Below are positions 3,158 to 49,630 of a stretch of DNA of 64,000 nucleotides, in pieces. The position numbers and the translations under genes were made by a program. Numbering within the stretch: position 1 is the stretch's first letter; each line of letters opens with the position of its first letter. The DNA comes from an uncultured Subdoligranulum sp. (GTDB lineage Bacteria > Bacillota > Clostridia > Oscillospirales > Ruminococcaceae), in the NCBI RefSeq assembly GCF_904374465.1, contig NZ_CAJFFY010000002.1. One strand, 5' to 3'. The notes under the pieces are model-generated. The model saw nothing but the letters and a program-made list of their open reading frames with translations, ran no database searches and was not told the DNA's origin.

Positions 3158-3363
3158 TTGCCCAGCTTTGTGCAGCGGCAGCCGGGCGGGATGATGCCAA
3201 GGGATAAAACATCCTCTTTTTTATCCCATAGGAACTCGACGCCAACAAGGCCGGAAGAACTGTACTGCGGGAACGATTCCCATGCATAACGGTGGATGTT
3301 TTCGCAGACGGAGATACGCTGTTCGACCGGTAGTGAAGTGAGATCGACTGAATAGAACGGCAC
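3154..3363 (-). CDS. Hypothetical small protein (69 aa, GTG start)
   Basis: C-terminal part of track ORF 3154..4185. GGGAGG RBS 8 nt before GTG at 3363; sequence VPFYSVDLTSLPVEQRISVCENIHRYAWESF looks protein-like. The upstream part of that ORF is rejected. Confidence 0.4.
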   Translation of the reverse strand: MPFYSVDLTSLPVEQRISVCENIHRYAWESFPQYSSSGLVGVEFLWDKKEDVLSLGIIPPGCRCTKLGN

Positions 3364-3459
3364 AAAATTCACCTCCCTCCTATTGGAAATAGCGGCCGGA
3401 CGGGGCCACTGATTCCAGTATAACAGAGAGAAAGAGGAAACAAAAGGAGAAGTACAGCA

Positions 3460-3645: not shown

Positions 3646-3721
3646 GCCGGCGAAGCACAAATGGCTGTGCAGCTGATTTGTAATCAGAAGGCTACGGGTT
3701 CGAGGCCCGCCGCCGGCTCCA
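3646..3721 (+). tRNA. tRNA-Thr (anticodon TGT), phage-encoded
   Basis: 76 nt with canonical numbering. Acceptor GCCGGCG/CGCCGGC, D stem GCAC/GTGC with G18G19, anticodon loop TTTGTAA, T loop TTCGAGG, encoded CCA. Atypical A8 and mismatches at 27:43 (G.A) and 49:65 (A.C). Confidence 0.8.
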
Positions 3722-3724
3722 TAT

Positions 3725-3799
3725 GCGAGGGTCGTATAACGGCTAGTACACCAGCCTTCCAAGCTGGGAGCGGGGGTTCGATTCCCCTTCCTCGCTCCA
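3725..3799 (+). tRNA. tRNA-Gly (anticodon TCC), phage-encoded
   Basis: 75 nt. Acceptor GCGAGGG/TCCTCGC, anticodon stem CCAGC/GCTGG with loop CTTCCAA, T arm GGGGG-TTCGATT-CCCCT, discriminator T, encoded CCA. Confidence 0.9.
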
Positions 3800-4280
3800 T
3801 GGTAAACCTGGATGCCAAAGAAAACCTGCTTCGACAGGGAAGTGAACGGTTGAGCCGGACACACCAGGATAGAGCGTGACAGGTGGAAACGCTCACCGTC
3901 CTTGCCCCAACCAAGCACCGGGACGGCCCTGCAATGTGAGGCGATTGCCCAAACGTTCGGGGGTATGAGCCTCGTCCATGTTCCCTGTCTGGCCTGGGTG
4001 AGTGGCCAGAACCGCCGCGGGTGAAGCGGGACCCGGCCCTGACATTCGTCCGCGTGGGTGCCCCAAAATGCCCACCAGGCCGGGATATAAGGGGAACGCG
4101 CCCGCGCGAGGACGCGGACCCCGTGGGGTGATGGCCGCCGCGCAGCCATAATCAAACCTCCTGTTTTTGCATTTTTCTCCTTCACAGTTTTTCACGAAGC
4201 AGCGCGGCGGCCTTTATATGGTGCAAGGGCAAGGCGATACAACGTACCGTCGCCCGGTTCAACTCCGGGATGCGCCACCA
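3800..4280 (+). ncRNA. Candidate large structured noncoding RNA, ending in a tRNA-like T-arm/acceptor/CCA module
   Basis: 495-nt gap with no credible ORF. It is dense in local and nested GC helices (coordinates in findings), sits directly 3' of two tRNAs, and has a 61-nt tRNA-like module at 4220-4280. Confidence 0.5.
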
Positions 4281-5906: not shown

Positions 5907-6587
5907 ATGAAAGTCAGACTGACATTTATTGAAGAATCGCTGGGGTCAACCCCCGCCAAAGAGAACCTGCTGCGGGAGTATATTGTCAGCAAATCCAGTG
6001 ACCCGGTGAAGATCGAGGAAGAAATTGCGGCCCATGGTGTGCAGGCGGTGGAAGATGACCGAATGACCGTATTCCCCCGGCTGGCAGACGGGCGCCCGAT
6101 CTTCTGGGATTACCAGATCAAGGGATTTCTCAAAGACTCCTGGCAGATGCTGGCGAAAGCAGGAAAGGCCGGGTATGAAGGCGGCTGGGCATGTTCCTGC
6201 ATCAAAGCATACAAGAAAACCATTGACGGGCTGATTTTTGTTTTCCCCCGGCAAATACCCATAGAAATGCACGGAATGAAGATGGATACCTGCGAACGTC
6301 CTCTGCGGGCATCCACCCCGATGGGTGAGCGCGTGTCCATCGCAAAGAGCGAAACGGTGCCGGAGGGGAGCACCCTGCAGTTTGAGATCACCTGCCTGGA
6401 CCCGCACCTGGAAGAATGTGTGATCGAGTGCCTGAACTACGGAAAACTGCGCGGCCTGAGCCAGTGGCGCAACAGCGGCAAGGGCCGGTTTACATGGGAG
6501 CGGCTGGACGAACCGGCCGAGAAGCCAACAAAGAAGCGGGGAAAAAAGAAGGCTGACGAAACTGCGGAAGATGACGGAGAAGCATGA
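5907..6587 (+). CDS. Hypothetical phage protein with Lys/Glu-rich C-terminal tail
   Basis: GAAAGGAG RBS; 226 aa; family not recognised. Confidence 0.7.
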   Translation: MKVRLTFIEESLGSTPAKENLLREYIVSKSSDPVKIEEEIAAHGVQAVEDDRMTVFPRLADGRPIFWDYQIKGFLKDSWQMLAKAGKAGYEGGWACSCIKAYKKTIDGLIFVFPRQIPIEMHGMKMDTCERPLRASTPMGERVSIAKSETVPEGSTLQFEITCLDPHLEECVIECLNYGKLRGLSQWRNSGKGRFTWERLDEPAEKPTKKRGKKKADETAEDDGEA

Positions 6588-16283: not shown

Positions 16284-16313
16284 GCGGAAATCTCCTTTCG
16301 TTTTGTGCTATCT

Positions 16314-16362
16314 GGCTGGGGTCGGGTCGCTTTGTTTCCGGTGCGGCCCGCGAAGGTGTCCG
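16314..16362 (-). repeat. Intergenic repeat family A, copy 1
   Basis: GGCTGGGGTCGGGTCGCTTTGTTTCCGGTGCGGCCCGCGAAGGTGTCCG; near-identical to the copies at 17682-17730 and 17961-18009. Confidence 0.9.
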
Positions 16363-16395
16363 GGCGTCATTTTCGTGGGGTCACGAAATTGGTTG

Positions 16396-17639: not shown

Positions 17640-17730
17640 CCCATGAGCGCCCCGCCTTGATGGAGCGGGGCCGGCCTTGTGGGCTGGGGTCGGGTCGCTT
17701 TGTTTCCGGCGCGGCCCGCGAAGGTGTCCG
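17640..17730 (-). repeat. Composite intergenic repeat: family-B-like hairpin fused to family A copy 2
   Basis: CCCATGAGCGCCCCGCCTTGATGGAGCGGGGCCGGCCTTGTGG followed by the family A unit. Confidence 0.85.
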
Positions 17731-17748
17731 GCGGATTGTGGTGCAGGG

Positions 17749-17952: not shown

Positions 17953-18009
17953 TCCTTGTGGGCTGGGGTCGGGTCGCTTTGTTTCCGGTGCGGCCCGCGA
18001 AGGTGTCCG
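17953..18009 (-). repeat. Intergenic repeat family A, copy 3
   Basis: CCTTGTGGGCTGGGGTCGGG...GAAGGTGTCCG, ending 5 nt from the stop of the upstream gene. Confidence 0.9.
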
Positions 18010-18014
18010 ATATA

Positions 18015-18578: not shown

Positions 18579-18613
18579 GGTGAAAACCTCCGGTTTATGT
18601 TTTGGGGCTGTAA

Positions 18614-18697
18614 CCCTTGAGCGCCCGCCCCGGTGTGGAGCGGCTGGGCTTGCACCAGCGGCGGCGGCTGCCGTCGGCCTTGCGGGCGTTGTTATGC
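18614..18697 (-). repeat. Intergenic repeat family B, copy 2
   Basis: 84 nt, aligns end to end with 19698-19780; includes the last Ala codon and TAA of the upstream gene. Confidence 0.85.
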
Positions 18698-19690: not shown

Positions 19691-19697
19691 ATGGTTA

Positions 19698-19780
19698 CCC
19701 ATGAGCACCCGCCCCGTTGTGGGGCGGCCGGGCTTGCACCGGCGGCGCGTTGTGCGTCGGCCTTGCGGGTGTTGTTATGC
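19698..19780 (-). repeat. Intergenic repeat family B, copy 3
   Basis: 83 nt; contains the CCGCCCC-GTTGT-GGGGCGG hairpin. Confidence 0.85.
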
Positions 19781-43086: not shown

Positions 43087-43521
43087 ATGTACAATCGCAC
43101 ATTCTGGCTCGACCATGTCGAGGATGAAGATGGCGAGGTCATTCAGCAAGGCACGCTGATGGACCAGGCACACTTCAACAACATGGAGGTGGGCATATCG
43201 GACGTTGCGCTGGCAGCGCAGATCGAAGCGTTCCGCAATATCCAAGAAGGGTATGAGATGGTGGGAGAAACCACCACTGTGACGCTGACGACAAACAGCA
43301 ATCCGTGGCCGTTCTGCAATACGGAAAAAGCCGTGGCGCTGAGCGTGATGCGCAACACCAAAAACTATGATGTGGAGGTCACCGTCAAATCTTACAGCGG
43401 CGGGCAAATCGGAAACTTTGAAATTCTGGACAAGGCCCTCAACGGTTTCAAAATCCTGCACGATGGAACGGCAAAGAGCGTGACAGTCATGCTCAAAATT
43501 ACGGGAGGTATGATTGCATGA
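43087..43521 (+). CDS. Hypothetical tail-fibre-region protein
   Basis: AAAGGAGG RBS. Confidence 0.6.
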   Translation: MYNRTFWLDHVEDEDGEVIQQGTLMDQAHFNNMEVGISDVALAAQIEAFRNIQEGYEMVGETTTVTLTTNSNPWPFCNTEKAVALSVMRNTKNYDVEVTVKSYSGGQIGNFEILDKALNGFKILHDGTAKSVTVMLKITGGMIA

Positions 43522-43898
43522 AAATCGAAGAAATGAACGCCGGCAAGAAGATTGCCTATGATGTGGACGGCACCAGACTGGACTTTGCAGGCGGCGCGCT
43601 GACCATGGACCTGGACCGCTACCGGCGGGACTATCCTGTGACCAAGGATGTGATGGCCGACGGTGACGGCAATCTGACGCTGGGCAGCGGTGGTAGGTAC
43701 TATGTAGCCCAGGTCGAAATCCCCGCAAACACCTACACGGAGGTGCAGACGGAAGCGGAAGAGGAACCTGTTGGAACGCTGGCGGCTTCTGAGGAACAGC
43801 CCACCGCGCCGGACAATGCGACCATGCAGCTGGACCCCCTGGACATGGAAAAGGTTGTGCTGCGCCTGTGGAGCGTCGCCGGCATTGAGATTTTTTAA
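43518..43898 (+). CDS. Hypothetical tail-fibre-region protein
   Basis: ATGA overlap. Confidence 0.55.
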   Translation: MKIEEMNAGKKIAYDVDGTRLDFAGGALTMDLDRYRRDYPVTKDVMADGDGNLTLGSGGRYYVAQVEIPANTYTEVQTEAEEEPVGTLAASEEQPTAPDNATMQLDPLDMEKVVLRLWSVAGIEIF

Positions 43899-43912
43899 GG
43901 AGGTAAGAAACG

Positions 43913-45010
43913 ATGGCCAATTTTGAATTTTCTGCCCTGGCCCTCAAAGCCGTGGCCCCCAGCAATGATCTGCTCATGGACGACAAAGGTATGCCCAGCT
44001 GCATGGTTTTTGTCCCCAAATTCAAGCTGTCCGATGTGCTTTCCACGGACGACGACAGTACCCACCCGGCGTTCATCGTGAACGGAACGGAGCGCCCTGG
44101 ATTCTGGATTGGAAAATTCCAGAGCAAGAGCATTAACGGCCGGCCCTATGCACTGCCCTGCGAGGATCCCACGGCAAGTATGAACCTCGATACTTTTGTG
44201 GCGCAGGCTCGCGCAAAAGGCACGGGATGGCATGAAGTCACGGCTGCCGAGTGGGCTGCACTGGCGCTGTGGTGCCACAGAAACGGGTGTGAACCGAAGG
44301 GCAACAACAACTACGGAAAGGACGTATCCGAAAGCACCTACAAAGCTATCCCGACGTTCTACGACACAGGCGCTGGTGGAAAGATCGGGCGCGTGGCTAC
44401 CGGTTCCGGGCCGATCAGTTGGAGCCATGACGGCACGCTGGCCGGAATCTGGGACCTTAACGGCAACGTTTGGGAGTGGTGCACGGGAATCCGCCTTGTC
44501 AATGGCGAAGTGCAGGTTATTGACAAGAACAATGCCTGCGACAACGCCACGGACTTGAGTGCCACCAGCGGGGCATGGAAGGCCATCAAAGCGAGCGACG
44601 GCACCCTGGTTACGCCCAACGGCAGCGGCACCACCTCCGGCACAGTGAAGCTGGACTACGTTTCTGGAAAGTGGCAGTACAACACCACTATTTCTAGCCA
44701 GGAGGACAGCAGCCGCAGCTGCTCCTTCAAGGACATCACCTGCGCAGAGGGCGTGGGAGCCGCCGCAAAGCTGCTCCTGCAGAGCCTGGCTATGATGCCC
44801 GACACCGATCTGACCGGAGAAGGCATCGACGCTACATACGGCGGCGACACGTTCTGGGTGAACAACGCCCAGGCGGAGCGGTGCCTGTGTCGTGGCGGCT
44901 ACTGGAGCCACGGCGGCAGTGCCGGTGTGTTCGACGCGAACCTCCACCACCCGCGGTCCGACGTCAGCGCGGCCGTCGGCGGGCGCGTCGCTTTTATCGA
45001 AAACCCGTAA
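43913..45010 (+). CDS. DGR target: FGE-sulfatase / C-type-lectin-fold receptor-binding (tail fibre) protein
   Basis: GNVWEWC motif; the C-terminal 39 codons are the VR; AAGGAGG RBS. Confidence 0.85.
   Translation: MANFEFSALALKAVAPSNDLLMDDKGMPSCMVFVPKFKLSDVLSTDDDSTHPAFIVNGTERPGFWIGKFQSKSINGRPYALPCEDPTASMNLDTFVAQARAKGTGWHEVTAAEWAALALWCHRNGCEPKGNNNYGKDVSESTYKAIPTFYDTGAGGKIGRVATGSGPISWSHDGTLAGIWDLNGNVWEWCTGIRLVNGEVQVIDKNNACDNATDLSATSGAWKAIKASDGTLVTPNGSGTTSGTVKLDYVSGKWQYNTTISSQEDSSRSCSFKDITCAEGVGAAAKLLLQSLAMMPDTDLTGEGIDATYGGDTFWVNNAQAERCLCRGGYWSHGGSAGVFDANLHHPRSDVSAAVGGRVAFIENP
44877..44994 (+). repeat. DGR variable repeat (VR)
   Basis: 104/118 identity to the TR; all 14 differences lie opposite TR adenines. 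Confidence 0.9.
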
Positions 45011-45116
45011 GCTGCCAGGCTGCAAAGCTGGACGGCTGCGCGGTAGCGCGGCCGCTTAAATAACGCGGACGGGAAACCTGCGCCGCACTGACGCCGCACC
45101 AAGGAGGGAATGAAAG

Positions 45117-45500
45117 ATGGCGAACGATGTGCCGCCCCAGGAGGGGCCAAAGCCGTTCTACCTGCGCGAAAAGATTGGCGAAATGGTGAAATATGGATAC
45201 CCGCTCACCATGAGATTCAGCAGAAAGGACCGCGAACTGGCCGACCAGTTGCGCGTTAGTATGCTGACGGTCTACCGTCTGAGCGTGGAGATCGACAAAA
45301 AATACTACAAGAAAACGACAGTCCAAAACCTGGACGTGGAGCTTGCTGTCCTACGACAGCTGGTACAAATGGCGGCGGATAAAGACTTTTACGGCGGGAA
45401 GCATCCGCCGCCGCTGACAATCCAACAGTATGAGGTTTGGGCAAGATTCAATAATGAAATCGGGCGGTTGCTGGGCGGATATATCAAGAGCCTGGCATAG
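45117..45500 (+). CDS. avd: DGR accessory variability determinant (Avd, four-helix-bundle type)
   Basis: 127 aa, basic and helical, placed between VR and TR. Confidence 0.75.
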   Translation: MANDVPPQEGPKPFYLREKIGEMVKYGYPLTMRFSRKDRELADQLRVSMLTVYRLSVEIDKKYYKKTTVQNLDVELAVLRQLVQMAADKDFYGGKHPPPLTIQQYEVWARFNNEIGRLLGGYIKSLA

Positions 45501-45526
45501 TCCTTTTTCTATGGGAGCAAGCCGAT

Positions 45527-45644
45527 AACGGTGCCTGTATCGTGGCGGCAACTGGAACAACGGCGGCAGTGCCGGTGTGTTCAACGCGAACCTCAACAAC
45601 CCGCGGTCCAACGTCAACACGAACATCGGCGGGCGCGTCGCTTT
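45527..45644 (+). repeat. DGR template repeat (TR)
   Basis: Noncoding copy of the VR, rich in AAC in the VR frame; 26 adenines, 14 of them changed in the VR. Confidence 0.9.
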
Positions 45645-45812
45645 GCTCCCCGGCCTTTTGGCGGAACCCCGCGCCTGATATGTGGGCCGCGCCCTACGGG
45701 GAGCGGTCGGTGCGAAGGGGATCAAAGGGGCTTGTTTCCATTCCGGGCAGACAACCCGGAAAAAATGTGAATTGCCGCGAAGGCGGGAACGCCACGCGCG
45801 GCGGGTAGTAGA

Positions 45813-46940
45813 ATGAAGAAAATACCTGAAGGAAGTTTTGCTACGATCAGTAGCTTTGGATGGATGCTTGCTGCACATCGAAATGCGAGGAAGGGAAAGC
45901 GGTACCGGGGCGATGTATTACGGTTCTCGGCAGAGCTGGAAAAGAATCTGCTTTCGCTGCAAGAAGAACTGCGCAGCGGAACATATAAGACCGGAGAATA
46001 CCGAAGAATTTGGGTAAGCGTACCAAAACGCCGCCTGGTAATGGCACTGCCTTACCGCGACCGGGTTGTGCAATGGTGCATCTACTTGCTCCTAAATCCA
46101 TACTTTGACAAGCGCTTTATCGAAGATAGCTATGCTTGCCGCGTGGGAAAAGGGAGCCACAAGGCCGTTGAACGCCTTCAATACTGGCTGCGGCAGATAA
46201 ACCGTCGGCCAGAAACTGGGTGGTACTACCTAAAACTGGACATCTCAAAGTATTTCTATCGAATCGACCATAAAGTGCTGCTGGAAATCCTCCAACGGCA
46301 CATAGAGGACCGGCAGCTGATGGAACTGCTGCGCGGAATTATCTGCAACCCTAAAGAGCCATTTGGCCTTCCCGCCGGAAAGAAACCGGATGAAGTAAAG
46401 AAGGACGAATGGCTCTATGACGTGGGAATCCCTATTGGGAATCTGTCAAGCCAGCTGTGCGCGAACATCGTGCTGAATGAACTTGACCAATATGCGAAGC
46501 ACAAAATGCACATTCATTACTACATCCGGTATATGGATGATGTGTTGGTACTGGGGCCGGATAAAAGCACTTTGAAACGGTGGAAAGCTGAGATAGAAAC
46601 CTTCTTGCACGATAGGCTAAAACTGGAACTAAACCGGAAAACAACAATACGTCCTATAAGCATGGGTATGGAATTTGTGGGATACCGGGTTTGGGCAACG
46701 CATATCGAGATGCGAAAATCTACCACGCGCCGAATCAAGAGAGAGGTCCGTGCTATTTCCAGAAAAACGGCAAATGGAGAAATGGGCAGGGAGGATTTTG
46801 CCAGGAGAAAGGCAAGCATCGAGGGGCTGCTCAAACACGCGAATACTGCATCCCTCCGGTGGAGGCTCAACAAAATTTACACAAGAGAGATGGCCAAGAC
46901 CAAGGAGAAACACGATGTCGAAAGCGACGATCATTGGTGA
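45813..46940 (+). CDS. DGR reverse transcriptase
   Basis: 375 aa with RT motifs, including IRYMDDVLVLG (YMDD). Confidence 0.9.
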   Translation: MKKIPEGSFATISSFGWMLAAHRNARKGKRYRGDVLRFSAELEKNLLSLQEELRSGTYKTGEYRRIWVSVPKRRLVMALPYRDRVVQWCIYLLLNPYFDKRFIEDSYACRVGKGSHKAVERLQYWLRQINRRPETGWYYLKLDISKYFYRIDHKVLLEILQRHIEDRQLMELLRGIICNPKEPFGLPAGKKPDEVKKDEWLYDVGIPIGNLSSQLCANIVLNELDQYAKHKMHIHYYIRYMDDVLVLGPDKSTLKRWKAEIETFLHDRLKLELNRKTTIRPISMGMEFVGYRVWATHIEMRKSTTRRIKREVRAISRKTANGEMGREDFARRKASIEGLLKHANTASLRWRLNKIYTREMAKTKEKHDVESDDHW

Positions 46941-47091
46941 TTTGGAAGCTGTGGTTGAAACACAGGCACGGGCCATTCGTGTTCTGGCGGGCCGCCTTGC
47001 CGAACTGGGGGATACCCAGACGGGCAGGGATGAAATTGAAGAAGCGGATAAAGCATACGACCGGATGCTCGGGGCGGAGAACTGGCCGTAG
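46915..47091 (+). CDS. Hypothetical small protein (58 aa)
   Basis: AAGGAGAAAC RBS; MSKATIIGDLEAVVETQARAIRVLAGRL. Confidence 0.5.
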   Translation: MSKATIIGDLEAVVETQARAIRVLAGRLAELGDTQTGRDEIEEADKAYDRMLGAENWP

Positions 47092-47114: not shown

Positions 47115-47645
47115 ATGGATGAGATTATTCAAGCGTTTGGGGGGCTAACAGTTGGCACGGTGATGGTGCTGCTCGCTGGCCTGGCTGCCATGTGGCGGCT
47201 TTATAAAGCGACCAAGACGGGAATGATTCAGAAATACAAGGAGGAGGAAAAGGAGAAGAAAAAACTCCAAGATGTTGTAAATCAGGTGGCCGAGTACCCG
47301 AAATGGCACCAGCAAAGCATTGAAATTCGGGACAAGCTGGCTGATAGCGTTGAGGAAATCAAGAAGGCGGAGCAGGAAAACGCTACACGCCTGGCGGAAA
47401 TGAGCCGAATCATCTGCGAAAACAATGCCACCACGGCGCGGTACCGGATTTTGAGATTCAATGATGAGCTCTTGCACGGGACGCGCCACTCCAAGGAGCA
47501 TTTTGACCAGGTGCTCGGCGACATAACCAGTTACGAATCGTACTGCGCGGGACATCCGGAGTACGAGAACAACAAGGCCGTCCTGGCAATCCAGCATATC
47601 AAGCGGATTTACCAGCAGTGCATAACAGAAAACGACTTTTTGTAA
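47115..47645 (+). CDS. N-terminally membrane-anchored coiled-coil protein (lysis-region accessory)
   Basis: TM segment GGLTVGTVMVLLAGLAAMW, then a charged helix. Confidence 0.55.
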   Translation: MDEIIQAFGGLTVGTVMVLLAGLAAMWRLYKATKTGMIQKYKEEEKEKKKLQDVVNQVAEYPKWHQQSIEIRDKLADSVEEIKKAEQENATRLAEMSRIICENNATTARYRILRFNDELLHGTRHSKEHFDQVLGDITSYESYCAGHPEYENNKAVLAIQHIKRIYQQCITENDFL

Positions 47646-49409: not shown

Positions 49410-49500
49410 TGGCGGAGTAAGAGAGATTTGAACTCTCGCGGCCCTTTCGGACCCTACGCCCTTAGCAGGGGCGCCTCTTCGACCTCTTGAGTATTACTCC
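49410..49500 (-). tRNA. tRNA-Ser (anticodon GCT)
   Basis: 91 nt, reverse complement GGAGTAATACTCAAGAGG...; anticodon loop CTGCTAA, long variable arm, encoded CCA. Confidence 0.93.
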
Positions 49501-49539: not shown

Positions 49540-49630
49540 TGGCGGAGAGGATGGGATTCGAACCCATGGTCCGCTCGCGCGAATCGCTGGTTTTCAAGAC
49601 CAGTTCCATAAACCACTCGGACACCTCTCC
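49540..49630 (-). tRNA. tRNA-Ser (anticodon TGA)
   Basis: 91 nt, GGAGAGGTGTCCGAGTGG...; anticodon loop CTTGAAA, long variable arm, encoded CCA. Confidence 0.93.

Follow-up and report, generated by a model that had tools for sequence, protein, structure and literature searches.

The 64,000-nucleotide stretch analysed here (the window) carries, with a probability that we put at roughly 0.93, a complete diversity-generating retroelement (DGR) within a Lagaffe-like prophage whose host is a gut Clostridium of Subdoligranulum type, an estimate that includes the BPP-1-like mechanism proposed below. The cassette lies on the plus strand in the order VR-avd-TR-RT, with the variable repeat (VR) in a target gene, the accessory variability determinant avd, a noncoding template repeat (TR) and the reverse transcriptase (RT) gene. 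All three open reading frames (target, avd and RT) are intact, none of the family's conserved cis elements is missing, and the cassette is an ordinary DGR of the published type, with all defining parts present and undamaged. The first-pass annotation had proposed a complete DGR cassette, and each component that it named tested positive: Avd, RT, the target, which is TaqVP-like, and the TR/VR pair.

The VR (44877..44994) spans the last ~39 codons of the target gene except the final five before the stop codon and aligns without gaps over 118 nt to the TR (45527..45644), which contains 26 adenines and, in the VR frame, 10 AAC codons. The two repeats differ at 14 of the 118 positions, and 14/14 mismatches are located at TR adenines, an outcome that has a probability of 1.9e-11 if 14 random mismatches are to land on the 26 A positions [C(26,14)/C(118,14)]. 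The first-pass annotation had listed these same 14 adenines, which we recovered exactly, coordinate by coordinate, and its peptide readings of the AAC-rich TR and of the VR are both right, the TR in the VR frame giving RCLYRGGNWNNGGSAGVFNANLNNPRSNVNTNIGGRVA. The changed adenines occupy codon positions 1 and 2, with the exception of 45528; the 5' edge of the TR (45527-45528) is a soft boundary, and 45528 also belongs to the A sites that vary in relatives. A repeat search recovered the pair independently (116 nt, 89% identity), and only one VR-like copy was found within the 64-kb window by repeat search and tblastn.

The 127-aa avd gene (45117..45500) is located between the VR and the TR, as had been noticed from the letters, and its product matches Pfam family PF22296 (bAvd; 8e-20, 71.8 bits, cut-off 40) and phrog_3206, ‘Avd protein of DGR’ (1e-23); against the NCBIfam DivGenRetAVD equivalog it scores 71.7 bits, just below the cut-off of 80, and a PDB sequence search with Avd returned nothing significant. 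The RT gene (45813..46940) encodes 375 aa, the predicted length, with the expected YMDD at residue 240. It further contains IGNLSSQ at residues 208-214 and the conserved R74, and thus carries the DGR-clade signature, in which [I/V/L]GxxxSQ replaces QGxxxSP (PMC7826257). Among solved structures, the enzyme is closest to the Bordetella phage bRT (8ub7; 7e-47), well ahead of group II (3e-20) and retron-type (4e-17) enzymes, and the protein matches phrog_1423 at 8.5e-130; the grouping with retron or group II RTs that the first-pass annotation had named as evidence against its reading is not what we found.

The target gene (43913..45010) encodes 365 aa with GNVWEW at residue 184, both as first annotated, and its product is identical to WP_295416134.1 of ‘uncultured Subdoligranulum sp.’. 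The protein has no Pfam or NCBIfam match and was identified by searching PDB sequences and folds; it also matches phrog_2889. In the PDB sequence search, it is a full-length homologue of the Thermus aquaticus variable protein TaqVP (5VF4; 2e-58), and its AlphaFold model (pLDDT 81) has TaqVP as the best Foldseek match (TM 0.83), followed by Mtd, PvdO and TvpA; model confidence is low in the region corresponding to TaqVP insert 1' (residues 130-184). The structural alignment with TaqVP (35% identity, TM 0.83/0.80) covers a C-type-lectin (CLec) core of the FGE subtype, inserts and a C-terminal VR that ends in an invariant beta-strand. TaqVP is chromosomally encoded by a thermophile and has 9 variable residues, whereas the window protein is encoded in the tail/baseplate module of a phage and has 14 variable codons. 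The structure prediction thus bore out the lectin fold announced in the first-pass annotation, and the remainder of that description needs qualification. ‘Tail fibre’ rests on the position of the gene after baseplate J/I and on a partial PHROG ‘tail protein’ match limited to the C-terminal 58 residues, and the Pfam FGE-sulfatase match that the proposed FGE signature would imply is absent from the window protein, although it is present in some homologues. Moreover, the whole protein resembles the monomeric TaqVP and not the trimeric Mtd of BPP-1 (Foldseek TM 0.28-0.29, E about 1e-2): only the CLec part is common to both, and the beta-prism and beta-sandwich trimerisation domains of Mtd have no counterpart in the single-domain window target. 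The target, whose gene directly follows the baseplate genes, is probably a receptor-binding protein.

Comparison with related loci, most of which came from exact-protein look-ups and cluster members, revealed the same adenine-restricted pattern across the population. Among 10 cognate pairs of TR and VR taken from other samples, changes affect 127 of the 243 A sites (52%) but just 2 of the 917 non-A sites (0.2%); variation in related copies is thus nearly confined to positions facing TR adenines, as the first-pass annotation had anticipated. Sixteen near-identical cassettes contained 9 distinct VRs versus 2 TRs; the TR was invariant in 14 of them, while the VRs were 76-89% identical. All 40 close relatives of the target (40/40) had distinct VR peptides, which varied at the 14 A-containing codons. 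One TR substitution, G79A, is found in the loci L149 and L155, and the corresponding position is A in the L155 VR and C in the L149 VR, which indicates that the new adenine was both transferred and mutagenised. The VRs of L158 and L159, which have other TR alleles, follow their own TR. A scan of metagenomes with the VR-independent anchor 45036-45073, chosen to avoid a bias towards A-only VRs, yielded one extra locus, L156. Taken at the level of sequence comparison, these patterns indicate that mutagenic retrohoming with adenine mutagenesis has occurred many times in this phage lineage.

Three other explanations deserve weighing. The repeat pair could be a plain partial duplication of the 3' end of a gene, diverged by mutation or selection beside an unrelated RT from a group II, retron or defence system. 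Pfam indeed assigns the RT to the generic RVT_1 family only, and the best NCBIfam match is a group II RT/maturase (TIGR04416), but its 139.6 bits are far below the cut-off of 300, and the protein is likewise far below the cut-offs for retron St85 (48.5 bits versus 235), Drt2-5 and AbiA, while an Rfam scan of the window found neither group II intron RNA nor retron RNA. Together with bRT as the nearest solved relative, the adenine-only pattern and its recurrence in the 10 cognate pairs, and the presence of an A-biased TR/VR pair in 105 of 140 RT relatives (about 27-56% identity), mostly in the same layout, these results refute the duplication account, to which we attach practically no weight. 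Alternatively, the VR diversity among samples might stem from recombination between pre-existing alleles, a form of cassette shuffling, rather than from ongoing reverse transcription. Module exchange does occur, since target bodies of two types, ~97% and ~81% identical to that of the window, are found beside a nearly constant avd-TR-RT module. Furthermore, the VR of L151-L153 (ERZ21549426, ERZ21549435 and ERZ21549436) is unlike the resident TR, with 10 non-A differences, a mismatch that might also reflect chimeric assembly; derivation from the TR allele of L159 was considered and rejected, as 7 non-A mismatches remain. Recombination, however, cannot keep the differences to those positions at which a separate, noncoding template has A, and it leaves unexplained why, in L148, L149 and L155, whose target bodies are of the 81% type, the VR and TR agree at every or almost every non-A site. 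The distinct VR peptides, with near-random residues at the AAC codons, fit mutagenesis, and we regard shuffling as a very improbable source of the diversity. The near-constant avd-TR-RT module may move between diverged target genes and then overwrite their VRs.

A more serious contender is a DGR by descent whose window copy is now silent, the VR being a frozen allele in a domesticated prophage. Six loci, drawn from five samples, have in common a 3.6-kb region that includes the VR and shows 100% identity, and 20 contigs encode exactly this target protein; the window's VR allele has therefore undergone no turnover on that time scale. Carriers of the allele include, for example, ERR3414578 and the samples behind ERZ27234798, ERZ28573923, ERZ4883062 and ERZ1478580. 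The Faecalibacterium study also encountered DGR prophages without read-level variation. Against silence stand the intact reading frames and the full set of family-conserved cis elements, as well as the sister copies, which bear different VRs next to avd-TR-RT modules at least 98.6% identical; besides, assemblies give the majority allele only, and low-frequency variants would stay hidden. On balance, we consider silence of the window copy unlikely, by a much narrower margin of belief than shuffling, and the copy may well still be active. The description ‘recently active’ from the first-pass annotation accordingly holds for the phage lineage, with its 9 VRs against 2 TRs, and less securely for the window copy itself.

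With DGRs that diversify lectin-fold receptor-binding proteins in temperate gut phages already well documented, the cassette itself matters little, and its value lies in a clean natural data set of one nearly invariant template and dozens of independently rewritten VRs. The set includes cases of the module adjoining a diverged target gene; it makes TR-to-VR transfer visible without experiment, and per-site mutation frequencies can be read from it: 52% of A sites are changed, with A to G commoner than A to C or T, after selection. The changed fraction in the window lineage equals the in vitro misincorporation rate of bRT.

The DGR RNA is covered by no family in an Rfam gathering scan, and a promoter scan found no promoter-like site, but folding and comparison with relatives delineated several elements in and around the spacer (Sp) between the TR and RT (45645..45812), which is 98.8-100% identical across 16/16 close copies. 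In the MFE fold, a strand 3 nt upstream of the TR (ATGGGAGCAAGCC; 45511..45523) forms a 13-bp ungapped long-range helix, the stop duplex, with 45729-45741 in Sp. Across 31 loci (the window and 30 relatives), 8 of 11 pairs of this helix are compensatory and 99.7% of cells are paired, in an alignment that was fitted to the helix, with its register anchored on GGG and with L001 and L004 (bulged helix) and L118 left out. Sp additionally contains a 9-bp hairpin with a UACG tetraloop (45685-45708), found in 33 of 39 loci, and a stem-loop (45743-45759) followed by a run of six adenines (45760-45765), the two occurring together in 21 of 39. A candidate primer strand (GGGGATCAAAG; 45717-45727) could pair with CTTTGCTCCCC (45641-45651); such a TR:Sp primer duplex is plausible, with weak discrimination by energy (-9.8 vs -7.5 kcal/mol). 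These elements have published counterparts in the BPP-1 RNP and in 207 other DGRs, and their presence here extends the structurally defined BPP-1 set to a clade of Clostridia phages, with covariation in the case of the stop duplex.

At its 3' end, the VR has a GC-rich, A-free segment of 19 nt (TCGGCGGGCGCGTCGCTTT; 44976..44994) identical to TR 45626-45644, immediately after which the two sequences diverge completely. The segment is invariant among relatives with a cognate TR, except for position 112 in L155, and by analogy with BPP-1 it probably plays an IMH-like role. In contrast to BPP-1, IMH and IMH* are thus the same within the repeat, and according to Wu et al., cases with identical IMH/IMH* need recognition downstream. 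Two elements occupy this flank. The first, located between the VR and a hairpin and beginning at the target stop codon, is a tandem array of four 7-8-nt repeats, each with CTG at its end (TAAGCTG, CCAGGCTG, CAAAGCTG and GACGGCTG; 45008..45038). A chain of four CTG at 7-8-nt spacing is found in 22 of 39 non-redundant loci (the window and 38 relatives), whereas 0 of 3900 shuffles reached even three spaced CTG; phage Lagaffe and most RT relatives of about 42-56% identity share both position and periodicity with the window. We found no description of such an array in selected DGR literature on cis elements and RNA structure. Tentatively, and with some doubt on our part, the repeats might be a cis element of DGR target recognition, equivalent in function to the distal half of the IMH in BPP-1. 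If so, the array would tell VR from TR in a clade where IMH equals IMH*, perhaps by serving the RT-Avd RNP or a host factor as an array of binding sites, and it offers a testable candidate relevant to the engineering of DGRs for directed evolution. Pairing of the CTG/AACTG repeats with the conserved CAGTT of the spacer was rejected, as CAGTT is retained in some loci with AATCTG or GCTG repeats and absent from others, with no co-variation by eye.

The second element is a GC-rich hairpin/cruciform (GGCTGCGC-GGTA-GCGCGGCC; 45034..45053) with an 8-bp stem, including one T.G, and the GRNA loop GGTA. It fits the rule of Guo 2011 (a GC-rich 7-10-bp stem and a 4-nt GRNA loop). The hairpin was recognised by comparison with relatives only, its single-sequence DNA folding energy being non-significant (z = -0.37). 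Most of the 38 relatives have a hairpin between +32 and +45, with the loop context GC-GNNA-GC, and 45036-45073 is unchanged in 16/16 close copies.

By homology to BPP-1, these elements suggest how the cassette would work. An RNA that runs from the end of avd through the TR and the spacer would fold around the RT-Avd complex, with the template bracketed by the duplex 45511-45523/45729-45741. The end of the TR would pair with the conserved spacer motif GGGGAUCAAAG, which makes cis-primed cDNA synthesis at the last TR bases (about 45641-45644) probable, with the priming nucleotide predicted to lie in AAAG (45724-45727). The RT is expected to be faithful at C, G and U and to misincorporate at about half of the adenines, after which the cDNA would replace the VR, targeted by the shared GC-rich A-free end and possibly by the VR-specific flank comprising the CTG repeats and the GRNA hairpin. 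The predicted outcome is up to 1.5e14 variants of 14 residues on the C-terminal face of a lectin-fold protein.

Several likenesses to the prototype, Bordetella phage BPP-1 (mtd-avd-TR-brt), underlie this proposal: the order of parts is the same, Avd and RT are homologous, with equivalents of R74, I181 and Q187 conserved in the latter, and the VR is in both cases at the C-terminus of a CLec fold. In both systems, moreover, the VR is followed by a GC-rich GRNA-loop hairpin, and the spacer RNA contains a stop duplex, tetraloop hairpin, stem-loop and A-run. There are differences as well. The window hairpin starts 40 nt past the VR, the gap being filled by the CTG repeats, compared with 4-34 bp in the published set, and TR-VR homology in the window ends at about the predicted priming site, whereas BPP-1 primes 17 nt inside its TR.

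The closest known system is the published DGR of Faecalibacterium phage FP_Lagaffe (MG711461; Lagaffevirus), with which the window is fully syntenic: both have baseplate J-like and I-like genes, three small ORFs, a 365-aa Mtd-like/TaqVP-like target, Avd, TR, RT, small ORFs and an amidase endolysin, in this order. The identity is 54% for the target and 47% for the RT; neither the 3-kb cassette nor a 20-kb part of the prophage had a megablast match among 50,697 phage records, and there is no nucleotide-level similarity to Lagaffe. Faecalibacterium phages are known to be rich in DGRs, and the Lagaffe host and Subdoligranulum, the presumed host in the window, are gut Clostridia of one family. Whereas the window has one VR, tblastn located two target-like places in Lagaffe, and a published study reported two variable regions in Lagaffe_CP. 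The Lagaffe target gene, like that of the window, is trailed by four CTG-ending repeats and a hairpin.

Gapless alignment of the variable repeat (VR, 44877-44994), located within a 365-aa target ORF (43913-45010), with the noncoding template repeat (TR, 45527-45644) extended over 118 nt and contained 14 mismatches, every one of them at one of the 26 TR adenines. Under a random distribution of differences along the 118 nt, the probability of all 14 hitting the 26 adenines is 1.9e-11. The adenine-only pattern and the coordinates in the first-pass annotation are exact. The same pair was recovered by an independent repeat finder, and no third repeat copy was detected in the 64-kb window. The VR covers ~39 codons near the 3' end of the target, stopping five codons short of the end of the ORF, and the TR, read in the VR frame, is RCLYRGGNWNNGGSAGVFNANLNNPRSNVNTNIGGRVA, with 10 AAC codons.

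The 127-aa ORF between the two repeats (avd, 45117-45500) scored above the cut-off of the Pfam bAvd model and just below that of the NCBIfam equivalog, and also matched 'Avd protein of DGR' in PHROG. The 375-aa ORF located 3' of the TR (45813-46940) encodes a reverse transcriptase (RT). Among solved structures, its closest relative by far is bRT of the Bordetella phage diversity-generating retroelement (DGR) (8ub7, 7e-47, versus 3e-20 for group II and 4e-17 for retron-type enzymes). The motif IGNLSSQ corresponds to the DGR signature [I/V/L]GxxxSQ, and the protein retains R74 and an isoleucine equivalent to bRT I181, both of which have been shown to favour mutagenesis at adenines. Assignment of this RT to the group II, retron, Drt or AbiA types was considered and rejected, given that it scored under the curated cut-offs of all these models and that no intron or retron RNA was identified by Rfam. 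The initial proposals of a DGR-type RT and of an Avd-like gene between the repeats therefore both hold.

Exact-protein look-ups recovered the cassette 15 more times in other samples, with 3 copies added later. Over 3.6 kb, including the VR, six loci from five samples matched the window with 100% identity; in nine other copies, avd-TR-RT was at least 98.6% identical, with VRs only 76-89% identical. The close copies comprised nine distinct VRs versus two TR variants. Across ten cognate TR/VR pairs, 127 of the 243 A sites (52%) were changed, compared to 2 of the 917 non-A sites (0.22%), bearing out, almost without exception, the confinement of variability to positions opposite TR adenines that the first-pass annotation had set as its refutation test; changes from A to G (71) outnumbered those to C (35) and to T (21). 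At the protein level, each of the 40 members in the closest clusters at 90% identity had a VR peptide of its own, with variation at the 14 A-containing codons. That the transfer proceeds from TR to VR follows from three observations: a substitution of A for G in the TR of two copies (L149 and L155) reappears in their VRs, as A in L155 and as C in L149; the VRs of L148, L149 and L155 depart from the TR at few or no non-A positions despite target bodies only 81% identical to that of the window; and in L158 and L159, which possess other TR alleles, the VRs follow their own TR. Together, the population and direction-of-transfer data show that this lineage has been diversifying by mutagenic retrohoming. 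The suggestion of recent activity is best confined to the lineage, the VR allele of the window copy being fixed across five samples.

Comparison of the window (43518-46940) with L146-L155 revealed a mosaic. Every copy has nearly the same avd-TR-spacer-RT block (98.6-100% identity), the target gene body comes in two types (~97% and ~81% identity), and identity in the gene upstream of the target (43518-43898) drops to 67-88%, a pattern suggestive of a recombination boundary close to the VR. In L151-L153 (VR 3261-3378, TR 3911-4028), the VR and the resident TR disagree at 15 A and 10 non-A positions. The TR allele of another lineage, L159, is a closer match but still leaves 7 non-A mismatches, which points either to natural exchange of avd-TR-RT among phages whose targets have diverged or to a chimera of metagenome assembly.

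The target, identical to WP_295416134.1 ('uncultured Subdoligranulum sp.') and found in exact form on 20 contigs, had no match in Pfam or NCBIfam. It is a full-length homologue (2e-58) of TaqVP, the DGR variable protein of Thermus aquaticus (5VF4), on which its AlphaFold model (pLDDT 81) superposes with a TM score of 0.83; the next matches, Mtd, PvdO and TvpA, all with FGE-type C-type-lectin folds, were not significant (E 0.013-0.18). The C-type-lectin-type fold ascribed to this protein is hence supported, and its description as a tail fibre is better trimmed to a probable receptor-binding protein of the tail module. Several clusters in the target family, built at 90% identity, contain up to thousands of distinct members (P0091, 13,829; P0083, 3,462; P0116, 606; P0112, 294), as would be expected of DGR hypervariation in a protein database.

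All four RNA elements described for the BPP-1 DGR have counterparts in the window. The stop duplex is formed by ATGGGAGCAAGCC (45511-45523) and GGCTTGTTTCCAT (45729-45741); across 31 non-redundant loci, pairing was kept at 99.7% and 8 of 11 pairs showed compensatory changes, far in excess of shuffled and slid controls, in a mini-alignment fitted to the helix. A 9-bp hairpin with a UACG tetraloop (45685-45708) has equivalents (UACG, CAAG, CACG or UAAG) in 33 of 39 loci, and a stem-loop (45743-45759) is followed by six adenosines. The candidate primer duplex joins CTTTGCTCCCC (45641-45651), comprising the TR end and the first spacer bases, with the conserved GGGGATCAAAG (45717-45727); its geometry recurs in relatives, with energy discriminating weakly. 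By analogy, cDNA synthesis would begin at the last TR bases, where the TR-VR homology ends.

Because the A-free, GC-rich 19-nt segment at the VR end (44976-44994) is identical in the TR and VR, the mark of the VR must lie downstream. A hairpin 40 nt past the VR (45034-45053; 8-bp GC-rich stem, GGTA loop) has the GRNA loop expected of hairpin/cruciform elements in DGRs; its position is conserved in relatives. Between the VR and this hairpin lie four CTG-ended tandem repeats of 7-8 nt (45008-45038), with RGCTG units at exact 8-nt spacing in the window and [A/T]AACTG or AATCTG units in relatives. Such repeats directly follow the VR in L010, L047, L070 and others, with four also in Faecalibacterium phage FP_Lagaffe (~6085-6120 of locus L157). 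Of 39 loci, 22 contain the four-unit chain, and even a chain of three was absent from all 3900 shuffles. No description of this array was found in the DGR literature examined, and it may represent a VR-specific recognition element of the clade.

An A-biased repeat pair was present in 105 of 140 loci encoding relatives of the RT (~27-56% identity), with the VR-avd-TR-RT layout common to nearly all of the 105 and most of the rest lacking the upstream flank. No phage record showed nucleotide similarity to the window; the closest annotated phage is FP_Lagaffe, with a published DGR that is fully syntenic (54% identity in the target, 47% in the RT), and Faecalibacterium prophages were recently found to be rich in DGRs of such type. 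The original reading of the cassette as a DGR is supported, and the cassette is a textbook element of an already published phage type.

The target is preceded by baseplate J and P2-I-like genes and three small ORFs, and the RT is followed by two small ORFs and an amidase endolysin. The 58-aa ORF (46915-47091) overlaps the RT stop codon, and the 176-aa ORF (47115-47645; phrog_37604, unknown function), just 5' of the endolysin, has a hydrophobic N-terminal segment; kept in all sister copies and lying outside the DGR, both are possible lysis genes of holin or XhlA-like type. Two twister-sister self-cleaving ribozymes (18608-18690 and 19692-19773; 73 and 84 bits in Rfam) are clustered with three RAGATH-5 ribozyme motifs (16310-16363, 17678-17731 and 17957-18010; 51-58 bits) within 3.5 kb on the minus strand, ~25 kb upstream of the DGR, with which they apparently share a prophage. 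Sister contigs of ~50.2-52.3 kb are consistent with a ~50-kb phage. Two tRNA-Ser genes (49410-49500 and 49540-49630, minus strand), ~0.7 kb past the endolysin, and a tRNA-Thr/tRNA-Gly pair (3646-3799, plus strand) near the left end of the window may mark the prophage ends or an attachment site.
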